Below, in pieces: positions 50,280-57,402 of a stretch of DNA of 64,000 nucleotides. Position 1 is the first letter of the stretch, and each line of letters opens with the position of its first letter. The position numbers were made by a program, and so were the translations under genes. Origin of the DNA: Candidatus Latescibacterota bacterium (GTDB taxonomy: Bacteria; Latescibacterota; UBA2968; UBA8231); the NCBI GenBank assembly GCA_965206595.1, contig OZ242214.1, positions 64,001 through 128,000 on the forward strand, given 5' to 3'. The notes under the pieces are model-generated. The model saw only the letters and a program-made list of their open reading frames with translations. It was not told the DNA's origin and made no database searches.

Positions 50280-50765
50280 GTCGAGGATTTCAACGATGCG
50301 CCGTTGTTCGGAAAGCGGTGGAAGAGGGATTTCTATTTCCTTGATGTCGTTGTCGGAAACGGCCGGGTAATTCGCGCCTCTGACGCGTTCTGACAACACA
50401 GCGACAAAATCACGTGTGATCGTGAGATAAAACAAGAAGCGAGGTTCTACAACGGCATTATTTGATCGCAGAACACAAAAGCCGGTTGAAGCGATATGGC
50501 CATTGAGGTGGGCCGGAACCATGGCGACGGCGTTGAGGTTCGGACGTACTGTCGACACCAGTATGTCGTCTTTCCGAATGACTTTCCGTGCACGGCTCGG
50601 AGCCTGGGCACCTGGCATGGTTTGGTGTTCGACGATTACCTTGTGAGTGCGGTCAATTCCGGAGATGTCGACGTACTGGAACTCGCCAGGAATTTCTCGG
50701 CGCGGATCGATTTGCTCGGTGGGTTCACACACATCAGCGATGGTTGCGGTGTTCCACCCCATCAT
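50280..50765 (-). pseudogene. hsdS: Type I RM specificity subunit, truncated after the first TRD by IS
   Basis: APSRARK...DILVSTVRPNL...STGF...GANYPAV...IPLPPLSEQRRIVEILD, then IS end. Confidence 0.9.
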
Positions 50766-51154
50766 TCGCCCTCCATCTCTTCCAACTTTCCCCGAACCTG
50801 TTCAAGCAAAGCCTCGACGAGCCCGAGCGCCGCTTTGCGATCGATCGGATCGGTACTCGAATCGACACCACCATACCGGAACTCGACGGCATACGGAGTG
50901 TACATGGCCAGCTTTCGGAAAGCCTTCATGTCGACAGCCCGCGCGGCGAGCTGATTCACCAACGCCTCGAGATTGTGGGTAAGCGGGTAGGTCTCGCCGA
51001 GCAATGCGAGCCAGGCCTTGAAGGATTTCTCCGCGGCCTGCTGCACGTGAAACCCATACGATTCATCCGGCACCCCGGCAGTCATGTTCCGGAGCGTGAG
51101 GACATCGCGTTCGGCCGCATCGAGCAGCATCCGGGCGCACTTAGGGTCGCTCAT
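50762..51154 (-). CDS. HEPN domain protein
   Basis: FHVQQAAEKSFKAWL, THNL, YAVEFRY. Confidence 0.88.
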   Translation of the reverse strand: MSDPKCARMLLDAAERDVLTLRNMTAGVPDESYGFHVQQAAEKSFKAWLALLGETYPLTHNLEALVNQLAARAVDMKAFRKLAMYTPYAVEFRYGGVDSSTDPIDRKAALGLVEALLEQVRGKLEEMEGE

Positions 51155-51476
51155 AGAGCACCTTGCCTTCCCGTAGCGCCCGGGCCAGAACGTGGTTGAG
51201 AGAGTCGCGCCAGTAATCGACCTCGTCGTGGGTATAGACCAGGACGTCGGCAGAAACCGGAAAGTCCGCCAGGACCTTGTAGAGTCTGACCATCTCTTTG
51301 TGCCGGCTCCGCTCCCGGCCGAACGGCTCGGCTTCCAAGACCACCAGATCGACGTCCGATTCCTCTCGCTCGTCGCCGCGGGCGCGGGAACCGAAGAGGA
51401 TCACCTGCTCGGGATCGACCTCGCCGACGATGGCCTGGACCATCTGGTCGATGAGGGTGTCGGTGATTCCGGTCAC
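51141..51476 (-). CDS. Minimal nucleotidyltransferase (MNT)
   Basis: ILFGSRARG...SDVDLVV, DVLV, REGKVLY. Confidence 0.9.
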   Translation of the reverse strand: MTGITDTLIDQMVQAIVGEVDPEQVILFGSRARGDEREESDVDLVVLEAEPFGRERSRHKEMVRLYKVLADFPVSADVLVYTHDEVDYWRDSLNHVLARALREGKVLYERP

Positions 51477-53119
51477 TGCTCCACCTCTTCGAGCAGTTTC
51501 TCCAGCCCCGCAGTTATTTCACGCTCGATCGCCAGCACCTCGCGGATCAGCTCCGCGGGATCCTCGTCCGGAACCGGCTCGGCAACCCGTGGCTTGTAGC
51601 GCGAGGCGGTGAGGTTGTAGTCGTTCTCCGCAATGGTTTCGAACGGCGCCCACCAGCAGCGGGGCTCCTCGCTGCCCGGGTCGAGCACGGCGCCGGCTTC
51701 CTCGCCGGGTGGTTTCTCGAAGCGGGATTCCTTGTAATCGTTCCAGGCCGCCAGCAGCCCGGGGATGTCGTTCTCCCCCGGCGTCTCCGGACGGCCGCCT
51801 CCCTGGATCTTGTCGGGGTCGTAGCCGTCGTTGCGGATCTCGTAGAACCACACCTGTCTCGTAGCCGTCCGGCCCTCTTCCGGCTCGGTCGCCGGGCGCC
51901 GGAAGACGAGCACGGAGGTTTTGACGCCGGCGTACGGTTTGAACACGCCGGCCGGCAGCGACACCACCGCTTGCAACTCGTATTCCCGCAGGAGCTTCTC
52001 GCGCAGTTCCTTGTGAGCTCTCGTCGAGCCGAAGAGCGCGCCCTCCGGTACCACCACGGCGCAACGTCCCCCCGGCGCCAGGGAGCGCAGCATCAGGGCA
52101 ATGAACAACAGCTCGCTCTTTCTCGATTTTGTTGGCAGATCCTGGCGAATCGAGTCCCTGGGGATCTGGCCGGCAAAAGGCGGGTTCGAGAGGATCACCG
52201 CGTAGCGCCGGTTCAGATCGTCCTCGGTGAGTCCGCTCATCTCGGAGAGGACGTTGGCGCGCTTGAGGCGGGCATGGCGGATCCCGTGGAGCACGAGGTT
52301 CATGACGGAGATCCGCATCATCTGGCGCGATACGTCGGTGCCGTAGATGGATGCCTCGAGCCGGCTCCAGTCGGGTATCCTCTCCCCCGGCCCCTTCCGG
52401 TAGGTCTGGAGATTGGGGATCTCCTCTTTCACCTCTTCGAGAGTTTGCCCCCGTTTCTCGAGCCAGTCCTCACCGTAGACCGGCACTTCCTGGGGCTCCT
52501 CGCTGTAGCGGGCAAGGATGTGGTCGACGACGTCGATGAGGAAACCGGCGGTGCCGCAGGCCGGGTCGTACATGGTGTCGCCCAAGTCCGGATCGGTCAT
52601 CTCGACCATGAAGGCGCGGATCTGTCGCGGGGTGCGGAACTGGCCGTTGAGCGCCGACTGTCCGAGATGGGTGAGCAGGTATTCGAAGATGTCGCCCTTG
52701 ATGTCGGGCCCGAGCTTGCGAAAGTCGATGGAGTCGAACATGTCGATCACCTGCTTGAGCACGTTCGGATCGACGATCTCGAGCACGGCGTCGCGAAAGT
52801 ACTCGGCCACCTGCGGGTCGTCCTTGACCAGCGACGCCATGTACGGGAAGACCTCGTCGCGCACGAAGTTGCGCAGATCCTCTCCGCTCTTGAAGCGCCA
52901 CTTGGACCAGCGGAAGCGCTCGGCCTGCGCGGGAAAGAGGAGAGCGCCGTTGCCGGCCCCGAGCCGGCCTTGGAGCTCGCGGGTGGTTTCCTCCTCGTCG
53001 AGGAGCTTCAGGTATATGAGGTAGGAGATCTGCTCGATATAGGTGACGGGATTGGTCACGCCACCGGCCCACAGGATGTCGGTGATCTGGTCGAGCTTGC
53101 GCCGCAGTGTCTGGTCCAT
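51473..53119 (-). CDS. hsdM: Type I RM N6-adenine methyltransferase
   Basis: GDIFEYLL, GQFRTPR, DPACGTAGFL (motif I), NPPF (motif IV), VFKPYAGVKT. Confidence 0.93.
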   Translation of the reverse strand: MDQTLRRKLDQITDILWAGGVTNPVTYIEQISYLIYLKLLDEEETTRELQGRLGAGNGALLFPAQAERFRWSKWRFKSGEDLRNFVRDEVFPYMASLVKDDPQVAEYFRDAVLEIVDPNVLKQVIDMFDSIDFRKLGPDIKGDIFEYLLTHLGQSALNGQFRTPRQIRAFMVEMTDPDLGDTMYDPACGTAGFLIDVVDHILARYSEEPQEVPVYGEDWLEKRGQTLEEVKEEIPNLQTYRKGPGERIPDWSRLEASIYGTDVSRQMMRISVMNLVLHGIRHARLKRANVLSEMSGLTEDDLNRRYAVILSNPPFAGQIPRDSIRQDLPTKSRKSELLFIALMLRSLAPGGRCAVVVPEGALFGSTRAHKELREKLLREYELQAVVSLPAGVFKPYAGVKTSVLVFRRPATEPEEGRTATRQVWFYEIRNDGYDPDKIQGGGRPETPGENDIPGLLAAWNDYKESRFEKPPGEEAGAVLDPGSEEPRCWWAPFETIAENDYNLTASRYKPRVAEPVPDEDPAELIREVLAIEREITAGLEKLLEEVEQ

Positions 53120-55850: not shown

Positions 55851-55878
55851 TTCCTCGTCCATGGAAAATTAGATGAAC

Positions 55879-55893
55879 GCAAAGCGCGTGCCA
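55879..55893 (-). promoter_or_regulatory. sigma54 promoter of the hsdR-hsdM-MNT-HEPN-hsdS operon
   Basis: Minus strand TGGCACGCGCTTTGC, full match to TGGCAC-N5-TTGC, immediately after the regulator stop and ~30 nt before hsdR. Confidence 0.88.
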
Positions 55894-57402
55894 TCATTCG
55901 CCCACCCCGTAGCGTTTCATCCAGTTGGTGAGGGTCTGGTAGCTGGGCAGGCCGACGAGGTCGGCCGCCCTGGTCTTGTTGCCCTGCCCCTCGTCCAGGG
56001 CCCTCTCCAGGTAGTGGCGGGCCACGGATGCCAGAATCCCGGGCAGGTCGAGACCGTCGCCGAGGGGCTTGCCAAGCACCGATGCCTTTCCGGTTTCGCC
56101 CGCGGGCAGGAGGGAGTCGCGAATGTCCTCCGTCCTCAGCGTGGCTTCCGGGGTCCAGATCGCCGCGCGTCCCAGGGTGTTCTGCAGCTCGCGGACATTC
56201 CCGGGCCACGGGTGCGCGAGAAGGAGGTTTCTCGCTCCGGAAGAAAGTTCCTTCTCCACGAATCCCGGCTGCCCCCGCCCCTCCCGGTTCACGAGGGCGA
56301 GAATGTGATCGATCAGGAGCGGGAGATCGTCGCGCCGGTCCCGTAACGGGGGCAGTGGCAGCACCGCCACCGCCAGGCGATGGAAGAGGTCCTCGCGAAA
56401 GGCGCCGGCCGCCACTTCGGACAGGAGAGAGCGGTTGGTGGCCGCGATCATTCGCACGTCCACCTTGCGGCTACGAGAAGTCCCGACCGGAAGCACCTCC
56501 CCCTCCTGGAGCGCGCGCAGCAGCTTCACCTGCGCGGGCTTGGGAAGCTCTCCCACCTCGTCGAGGAACAGGGAGCCCCCGGATGCCTCCACGAAATGGC
56601 CTTTGCGGTCCTTTGTAGCCCCCGTAAATGCTCCCTTTACGTGACCGAAGAGCTCGGATTCGACGATCTCCGGAGGAATGGCGCCGCAGTTGACGGCCAC
56701 GAAAGGCTTGTCGCGCCGCGGACTGGTGCGATGGATGGCGCGGGCGAGAAGCTCCTTGCCGGTACCTGTCTCCCCTTCGATCAGCACCGGGACGGAGCGC
56801 GGGGCGACGCGGCGCGCCCGCAGGATCACGCGCTGCATGGCCTGGCTCCGGTGCAGGATCTCCTCGAATTCCGGCGCCTCCGGGGAGAGACCGGCGCTGA
56901 GGCGCTCGAGCTCCTCGTCCGGGCGGCGCAGCAGATCCGGAAGGAAGTCTGCTGAAATATCGAAGGGGACGGACACCGTGCTGACGCCGTGCTGCTTCGA
57001 GGACTCGATCAGCTCCGCGGGAAAGCGCGTCTTCGCGAGGATGATCCATACCGCGGCCATGGCCGGCGTGCCCGGGCTCAGGTGAAAGGTGAGGGCCGTG
57101 TCCCTGGGGCCGCCGGCCAAGGCCGTCTCGCAGGCGCGGACCGCGGCGACGTAGATCTCGCCGAATTGGGTGGGACCGGTGAGCTCCTCGTGGAGCAGGT
57201 GAAGGGTGGTGCCTTCGCAGCGCTGCTCGAGCCACTGCCGGTAGGGGCGAACGGCGCCGGCCTCGTGGTCGAAGAGCAGGTAGGCGTCATCGAACTCGCG
57301 GGCCATCAGCGCCTGGGCAACCGGCCCGGTTCCGACTGTCGGCTCCTCTTCGGGAGCGTCCAGGTCCGTGTTGCCTATCCAGGTGATGAGAGTCTTTAAC
57401 AC
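55894..57402 (-). CDS. sigma54 enhancer-binding protein with an RtcR/CARF-like N-terminal domain
   Basis: N-terminal TWIGNTD ... [47 protein letters not shown]-terminal HTH; no receiver domain. Confidence 0.88.

Follow-up and report, generated by a model that had tools for sequence, protein, structure and literature searches.

Restriction-modification (R-M) systems are usually treated as constitutive innate immunity. We analysed a 64-kb stretch of DNA from a Candidatus Latescibacterota bacterium (assembly GCA_965206595.1, contig OZ242214.1, positions 64,001 to 128,000), hereafter called the window, in which a gene for an RtcR-like sigma-54 activator stands directly in front of a type I R-M operon, all genes of this activator-restriction locus lying on the minus strand. 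The nearest described regulators are those of the RtcR_PspF2 type. In the passages of Makarova et al. 2014 (PMC4012209) that concern them, "RtcR-like proteins associated with R-M systems" are described as likely sigma-54-dependent activators of the downstream genes, and DNA restriction is predicted to be sigma-54-activated on cyclic-phosphate RNA or a phage nucleotide. The corresponding part of Bell et al. 2024 in eLife (PMC11090510) places RtcR homologues at the head of defence superoperons, including those with type I R-M systems and type II CoCoNuTs, and suggests that cyclic-phosphate RNA induces them, with HEPN RNases closing a feedback loop. A further known regulator is RtcR of E. coli and Salmonella, with its sigma-54 promoter in front of rtcBA.

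The window activator has the same three domains as the RtcR_PspF2 regulators (PMC4012209; PADLOC model PDLC01995), matches their profile end to end and shows the same linkage to R-M genes, with nothing different in kind. The promoter and binding sites, which are given here, are not given in the passages of Makarova et al. on these proteins. With RtcR the activator shares homologous CARF, AAA+ and helix-turn-helix (HTH) domains, and both lack a receiver domain, whereas the window activator falls below the NCBIfam cut-off for RtcR, does not lie beside rtcBA, is co-directional with its target (the E. coli arrangement is divergent) and has a defence operon as that target. As in the superoperons that Bell et al. 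describe in the part cited, an RtcR homologue occupies the 5' end of a co-directional train of defence genes; in contrast, the HEPN protein of the window belongs to a small MNT-HEPN pair, and no CoCoNuT or McrBC genes are found among the downstream genes examined in the window. The locus is a tidy, though partly damaged, instance of a computationally predicted kind, and the prediction has been in print since 2014. The first-pass annotation, made from the DNA letters alone, had proposed inducible restriction under sigma-54 control; this wiring is already predicted in the cited passages of Makarova et al. and of Bell et al. In the sources covered by our full-text literature searches, we found no experimental test of the R-M-linked RtcR-like family.

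We consider it probable that the activator gene and the DNA elements in and around it form a horizontally spread control cassette, which would work by the mechanism proposed below. If this is true, a ligand-gated sigma-54 boost would make restriction an induced response and link the sensing of RNA damage or nucleotides to DNA restriction. The present analysis adds the exact DNA elements, namely a promoter abutting the activator stop codon, candidate operator pairs on the activator promoter and a constrained pair of sites inside the activator gene, which make a test straightforward. The coordinates of all features are listed in Table 1.

A conserved sigma-54 promoter abuts the activator gene

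The first-pass annotation had reported a full-consensus -24/-12 promoter directly after the activator stop codon and about 30 nt before hsdR, and this observation is confirmed. The promoter TGGCACGCGCTTTGC, which matches the consensus at 10/10 positions, with GG at -24 and GC at -12 in the exact spacing, begins on the base directly after the stop codon TGA (55894-55896), and the ATG listed for hsdR (55862) lies 16 nt past the TTGC and 31 nt past the first T of the promoter. It is the sole exact TGGCAC-N5-TTGC match on either strand of the window, with a mean of 0.11 in shuffled sequences. Judging from the sequence here, the true hsdR start codon is probably one of two ATGs, at 55850 and 55847, which follow a GAGG at 55856-55853; the relatives keep ATGGACGAGG, followed by 8-9 nt and an ATG, ahead of hsdR. 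The hsdR leader would then be about 17-20 nt long, counted from a transcript start expected about 11-12 nt past the TTGC. Among runs recorded as RNA, none was listed that contains 53000-57800.

For comparison, we collected 79 related loci from the best 80 of 287 confirmed matches, their activators being 52-96% identical in protein sequence to the query activator. Promoter conservation was counted in the 78 loci in which the activator stop codon could be located, leaving out L039, which ends first. A promoter lies at most 15 nt past the stop codon, mostly at offset 0 or 3, with a 10/10 match in 35/78 loci and a 9/10 match in a further 25/78; the remaining loci have a match only further away (3/78) or none (15/78). 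The rest of the 1.81 Mb scanned on both strands holds just 71 matches of at least 9/10, so that the 60/78 junction promoters observed compare with about 0.07 expected over 78 junctions. The promoter is therefore conserved between homologous activator-hsdR pairs, far beyond chance. Upstream of the activator, only 2/74 loci show a second sigma-54 promoter, which is on the reverse strand; the window has none.

The shuffles of the window leave some room for an accidental -24/-12 match, with 11 of 100 holding at least one exact match somewhere; the recurrence at the same junction in many phyla refutes this, and we reject a chance origin of the promoter as next to impossible.

The activator carries an RtcR-like CARF domain

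Pfam assigns to the activator a Sigma54_activat domain (PF00158, residues 183-346, 228.6 bits), an AAA_lid_14 domain and a Fis-type HTH_8 domain (PF02954, residues 461-498, 22.8 bits against a cut-off of 22), and its translation contains the GAFTGA, Walker A and Walker B motifs. Residues 1-180 match no Pfam family at E <= 0.01, and no receiver domain is present. The N-terminal domain, which carries an SPGT motif at residues 109-112, was modelled with AlphaFold2 from an alignment of 46 homologues, and the resulting model has alternating strands and helices with a mean predicted local distance difference test score (pLDDT) of 85. The Foldseek matches listed for this model in the PDB are CARF-domain proteins and CRISPR ring nucleases, with the best match being Csm6 (PDB ID 6tug, E 8.9e-8) and others being Can2, Card1, Cami1, Cad1, Cam1 and VC1899; 61 matches have E <= 0.001.

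Compared by hhalign with residues 1-200 of E. coli RtcR, the N-terminal domain reaches a probability of 95.8% (E 7.3e-9, 130 columns), and the SPGT stretch of the activator is aligned with a TTGT stretch of RtcR. A BLASTP alignment to full-length RtcR shows 33% identity over 383 residues and begins within the CARF domain. The invariant columns W8, G10, D13, S109, P110 and G111 correspond to the two loops of the CARF pocket. The predicted fold and the profile comparison together indicate a CARF-like N-terminal domain that shares its ancestry with the sensor domain of RtcR.

The PADLOC model PDLC01995 (RtcR_PspF2--CARF_AAA_HTH) matches residues 3-500 on profile positions 2-480 of 481 with 646.9 bits (E 6e-195), while the sister models RtcR_PspF1 (246.6 bits) and RtcR (202.8 bits) score lower and the NCBIfam RtcR model NF038308 reaches 338.2 bits, below its curated cut-off of 650. 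By these profile scores the activator is a full-length member of the RtcR_PspF2 CARF_AAA_HTH family, RtcR-like and not RtcR proper. Of the 22 PDLC01995 matches listed in the genome, only the window copy aligns from position 2; the other 21 begin at profile position 118 or later and are therefore other sigma-54 activators. The genome also encodes rpoN, as an open frame of 507 residues.

The CARF domain might not sense a small ligand. It might instead provide a docking surface for partner proteins, as reported for RtcR with RtcA and RtcB, or it might only hold the ATPase off until this is relieved by other means. In the part of Kotta-Loizou et al. 2022 (PMC9650030) that bears on this, RtcAB are reported to bind the CARF domain of RtcR and to be required for activation, and Makarova et al. 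note, in the passages cited above (PMC4012209), that RtcR-type CARFs mostly lack a basic residue after strand 4. Conservation reaches 94-99% over residues 106-130 of the window activator and so exceeds what a small pocket by itself would require. However, the cassette contains neither rtcA nor rtcB, the genome has a single rtcB match, at C1:2444240, some 2.3 Mb from the window (C1:64001-128000), and the cassette moves between phyla, where it stands in front of varying downstream genes, so that a partner would have to be universal. We regard these alternatives as rather unlikely.

Table 1. Features of the activator-restriction locus, in window coordinates
Feature	Position	Strand	Description
Operator-like site O1	57436..57449	-	Degenerate ACAAG-N4-CTTGT in promoter spacer; begins 20 bp upstream of O2
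Sigma-70-like activator promoter	57425..57454	-	TTTACA-18 nt-TACAAT; 10/12 matches
Operator-like site O2	57416..57429	-	ACAAT-ATTT-CTTGT, overlapping the -10 hexamer; weight matrix score 18.6 bits; 27 nt before start codon
Activator gene	55894..57402	-	502 residues; RtcR_PspF2-type sigma-54 activator (CARF, AAA+ with GAFTGA, HTH_8); Pfam, PADLOC, NCBIfam
Predicted CARF sensor domain	56953..57402	-	About residues 1-150; AlphaFold2, Foldseek, hhalign
Embedded site A, candidate enhancer half	56242..56255	-	AGAAG-GAAC-TTTCT; gene nt 1148-1161; inverted repeat I4
Embedded site B	56222..56235	-	GCGAG-AAAC-CTCCT; gene nt 1168-1181; 20 bp from A, about 337 bp upstream of the -24 GG
Sigma-54 -24/-12 promoter	55879..55893	-	TGGCAC-N5-TTGC; conserved in related loci
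hsdR	53130..55862	-	910 residues as listed; HSDR_N, ResIII, Helicase_C, EcoEI_R_C (Pfam); REase_I (PADLOC)
Peptidase_S24 (LexA-like) insert in HsdR	55239..55667	-	Residues 66-208, between first helix and PD-(D/E)xK core
hsdM	51473..53188	-	571 residues as listed; HsdM_N, N6_Mtase (Pfam); MTase_I, 455 bits (PADLOC)
MNT-type nucleotidyltransferase	51141..51476	-	111 residues; Polbeta, NTP_transf_2 (Pfam)
HEPN protein, paired with MNT	50762..51154	-	130 residues; HEPN, 52 bits (Pfam)
Truncated hsdS	50265..50765	-	166 residues; one target-recognition domain and start of central helix
ISKra4-family transposase	48774..50272	+	Split over at least three frames; directly next to the hsdS break

Candidate operator and enhancer sites

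The sigma-70-like match in front of the activator, the sole such site in 49600-58200, counts for little by itself, since shuffled sequences give a mean of 1.6. A palindrome with the family consensus ACAAG-N4-CTTGT is positionally conserved in this region: a search of 954 kb allowing one mismatch finds 55 sites, of which 50 are located in the 100 nt ahead of an activator start, and 43/76 loci have at least one such site there. With a weight matrix, two upstream sites are recognised in 30/76 loci, centred near -50 and -28 and thus about 20 bp apart. The layout of O1 and O2 over the activator promoter in the window suggests negative autoregulation.

The approximately 380 nt upstream of the activator (57403-57786) are richer in A+T than their surroundings, the G+C fraction being 0.557 in 57000-57999 and about 0.65 on either side.

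The operator matrix finds 52 further matches within the activator coding sequences, over 300 nt ahead of the stop codon. When up to two mismatches are allowed, these concentrate at gene nt 1140-1170 (28 and 9 in two bins), and 28 loci have such a match at the position of site B, the family consensus of which, GCAAG-AAAT-CTTCT, differs from that of the upstream operators at 2/10 core positions. In a codon alignment of genes of 49-72% G+C, rare codons are kept at codons 385-392, where Ala390 is encoded by GCA in 68/75 sequences (background 0.13), Ser387 by TCT in 60/73 (0.09), Arg391 by AGA in 45/64 (0.05) and Leu386 by CTT in 47/60 (0.14). Among the 342 codon columns tested, the five with the strongest skew include residues 386, 387, 390 and 391. 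This in-gene DNA, which is under strong synonymous constraint, can be read as two sites 20 bp apart, and the inverted repeat at A and B was also found independently in the window. Their position upstream of the conserved promoter suggests that A and B are likely its enhancer, or upstream activating sequence (UAS).

Proposed control of the operon

The best explanation, which we hold to be probable as a whole, is a horizontally spread cassette of two operators on a sigma-70-like promoter, a CARF-AAA+-HTH activator, in-gene sites and a stop-abutting sigma-54 promoter, which in the window heads a type I R-M operon of hsdR (with an S24 insert), hsdM, MNT, HEPN and hsdS. The activator would be made from its own promoter and would bind O1 and O2 over the -10 region, limiting its own synthesis, while its transcript would read on into hsdR and hsdM, giving a low basal level that keeps the host DNA methylated. 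On a signal perceived by the CARF domain, the AAA+ ring would assemble on sites A and B, loop from about 340-370 bp upstream to the closed sigma-54 complex and open it, boosting the whole operon. By analogy with RtcR, the signal might be a nucleotide, a partner protein or RNA ending in a 2',3'-cyclic phosphate. Sequence and comparison show the domain content, the family placement, the conserved promoter, the presence of rpoN, the conserved position of the operator motif and the synonymous constraint on sites A and B, and we infer the occupants of the sites, the read-through, the induction and the ligand.

The basal part of this scheme is suggested by the layout. The promoter abuts the activator stop codon, which leaves no room for a terminator between the activator and the sigma-54 promoter, and no terminator-like site is found on the minus strand from 57402 to 50827; activator transcription should therefore run on into hsdR and hsdM. 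Such read-through from the sigma-70-like promoter probably supplies basal expression, the sigma-54 promoter adding an induced boost, and with hsdM under no visible separate control it is also what the host needs for DNA methylation.

Taken further, the same layout would make the operon constitutive in effect, expressed mainly by read-through from the activator promoter, with the sigma-54 promoter minor or reserved for rare conditions. That no terminator can intervene fits this, as does the place of hsdM behind the same promoter, considering that the host presumably needs methylation at all times. Against it stand the junction promoters, present across phyla in such excess over expectation, and the invariant CARF pocket loops, both of which point to a switch under selection, and the sigma-70-like match itself, which counts for little. 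We therefore think a constitutive operon unlikely and prefer an inducible boost on top of a basal level.

Several observations weigh against the cassette and its proposed mechanism. The 15 loci without a junction promoter include 8 of the 19 in the methylase-AAA_16 class described below, and the related loci, all at least 52% identical to the query, are not a sample of the whole family. In the N-terminal domain, the Pfam RtcR model gives no match on the activator at E <= 0.01, and a profile search of PDB sequences returned chance-level matches and no CARF protein; the CARF assignment is made because of the fold, the hhalign comparison and the PADLOC and NCBIfam profiles. The window O1 has three core mismatches and the window site B departs from its family consensus at two core bases. 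For the in-gene sites, the binomial P values of the codon skew ignore shared ancestry, a sliding-window synonymous scan shows only a modest dip at codons 376-386, and no positionally conserved perfect palindrome with 7-nt arms is found inside the activator gene, the best position being shared by 12/75 sequences, so that the sites emerged only with the relaxed match and the codon test. Their distance from the promoter, 340-370 bp, is longer than the roughly 80-200 bp that is usual for enhancer sites. Finally, the truncation of hsdS may make the regulation of restriction in this genome vestigial.

As for the first-pass annotation, its architecture holds up: an activator with no receiver domain and an RtcR/CARF-like N-terminal domain containing the SPGT motif, a -24/-12 promoter and tightly coupled downstream genes. 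It is further supported by the family membership of the activator, by rpoN in the genome and by the conservation of the promoter, a check that it had asked for. Its wording "inducible rather than constitutive" was overstated, given the read-through expected to express the operon, including the host-protecting methylase, at a basal level. What it called "restriction here" is probably not functional, hsdS being cut off by an insertion sequence (IS) element.

The operon and the state of this copy

Pfam, NCBIfam and PADLOC agree on the names of the operon genes, and the type I R-M assignment agrees with the domains, HsdR having nuclease and SF2 motor domains and HsdM being an N6-methylase. HsdR also matches the NCBIfam EcoAI/FtnUII family, below the cut-off. 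The genes overlap by 4 nt (hsdM/MNT), 14 nt (MNT/HEPN) and 4 nt (HEPN/hsdS). The open reading frame of hsdM as listed overlaps hsdR; its start is probably Met24 at 53119, which leaves a gap of 10 nt after the hsdR stop codon, and several tblastn alignments of HsdM among the related loci start at residue 24.

HsdS matches its PADLOC profile at positions 8-166 of 391 and corresponds to residues 1-162 of relatives of 395-420 residues, the similarity ending at 50280, next to the ISKra4-family fragments. An ISL3 transposase (47041-48075) lies on one side of the module and an IS1380 transposase (58115-59647) on the other, so that it is boxed by IS elements. Elsewhere in the genome, the missing half of hsdS matches just a different S gene, with 33% identity, and HsdS here is not a complete subunit with two target-recognition domains. 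With hsdS truncated by the ISKra4 element, restriction is therefore probably dead here, unless a half-size S subunit works, while the switch looks intact.

The insertion may have gone further and left an inert remnant with a decaying switch, for which we see about an even chance. The cut in hsdS, the IS elements on both sides and the degenerate sites B and O1 are what such decay would leave. On the other hand, the frames of the activator, hsdR, hsdM, MNT and HEPN are all open and full length, the sigma-54 promoter is a perfect match, and L023, which is 96% identical, keeps the same layout. The window copy is in any case a poor test object because hsdS is truncated, and intact relatives such as L022 and L002 are better.

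The HsdR insert and the MNT-HEPN pair

The window HsdR contains an insert that matches the Pfam Peptidase_S24 family with 29.8 bits, the cut-off being 23.3. The Ala-Gly pair, the serine of an SMEP motif and the lysine of an SVK motif are kept in 13/13 relatives with the insert, which 4 of 17 aligned HsdRs lack. The Peptidase_S24 profile, the Ala-Gly pair, the serine and the lysine are shared with LexA, UmuD and lambda CI, which belong to the self-cleaving MEROPS family S24; in contrast to these, the domain here is embedded in the nuclease region at the N-terminus of a restriction subunit instead of being attached to a repressor, and its self-cleavage is putative. An alignment to LexA places the insert serine and lysine on Ser119 and Lys156 without significance, the hhalign probability against E. 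coli LexA being 2.3%. The AlphaFold2 model of HsdR residues 1-330, made from 17 shallow sequences, has a mean pLDDT of 54, with a confident nuclease core and values mostly of 26-48 in the insert. Our literature search, in the texts that it covered, found no paper on S24 domains in HsdR.

The MNT-HEPN pair (50762-51476) lies between hsdM and hsdS, and the same pair is found in 5/79 loci (L009, L023, L024, L026 and L032). Adjacent small MNT and HEPN genes are the layout of MNT-HEPN toxin-antitoxin modules. One may speculate that RNA cleavage by a HEPN RNase would leave cyclic-phosphate ends and thereby yield the type of signal that RtcR-type CARF domains have been proposed to sense.

These parts can be joined into a single reading, which we put forward as an unlikely one. 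The cassette would be a self-contained and portable unit of sensor, enhancer and promoter, with the enhancer in synonymous positions of the activator gene, and in this clade the restriction enzyme would be gated twice. An infection or RNA-damage signal sensed by the CARF domain would turn it up, perhaps with feed-forward from the HEPN RNase of the operon, and RecA-stimulated self-cleavage of the S24 domain in the HsdR nuclease domain would turn it off at the protein level, as a built-in restriction alleviation.

Related loci and downstream genes

The related loci are labelled as Gammaproteobacteria, Magnetococcales, Myxococcota, Acidobacteriota, Planctomycetota, Spirochaetia, Gemmatimonadota, Latescibacterota, Binatia and others. 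A search with just the CARF region yields 5726 candidates, of which 3464 are database relatives at E <= 0.001, and the region has 947 representative clusters at the same threshold. In a tblastn search, hsdR was found downstream of the activator in 45/79 loci, in at least three HsdR lineages that are 30-36% identical to each other.

We classified the downstream genes of 78 loci by hand. Type I systems with an S24-bearing HsdR are found in 22 loci and the same HsdR clade without the insert in 2, while 17 loci have an HsdR with an N-terminal DUF4145, 6 have a short HsdR and 1 has a type I system with hsdM first. A protein of about 1250-1440 residues with N6_Mtase and AAA_16 domains, usually with a second AAA_16 protein, follows the activator in 19 loci, some of them IS-disrupted. 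The others have DUF4007 or unknown genes with a large methylase (3 loci), AAA_15/AAA_21 ATPases (5 loci) or other or unknown genes (3 loci). Given these differing downstream genes and the divergent HsdR lineages, the conserved unit is the activator with its promoter and not one operon.

The protein of 1250-1440 residues, which combines an N6_Mtase domain with AAA_16 at its C-terminus, was recorded individually in 14 loci, namely L034 (7538-12913), L036, L037, L040, L042-L044, L048, L053, L054, L062, L063, L066 and L069, where an AAA_16/AAA_22 protein of about 520-540 residues is usually next and the same activator and promoter stand in front. This pair might constitute a methylase-based defence system that is still undescribed.

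In L013 (7659-11126), a protein of 1155 residues with no Pfam match at E <= 1e-5 is encoded behind a perfect sigma-54 promoter and the same activator. L028, which is labelled as a Thermoplasmatota archaeon, is identical to L033 (Vicinamibacterales) over the 110 nt that precede the activator, over codons 374-396 and around the promoter junction, and the archaeal label of a locus carrying this bacterial sigma-54 cassette is probably a binning error.

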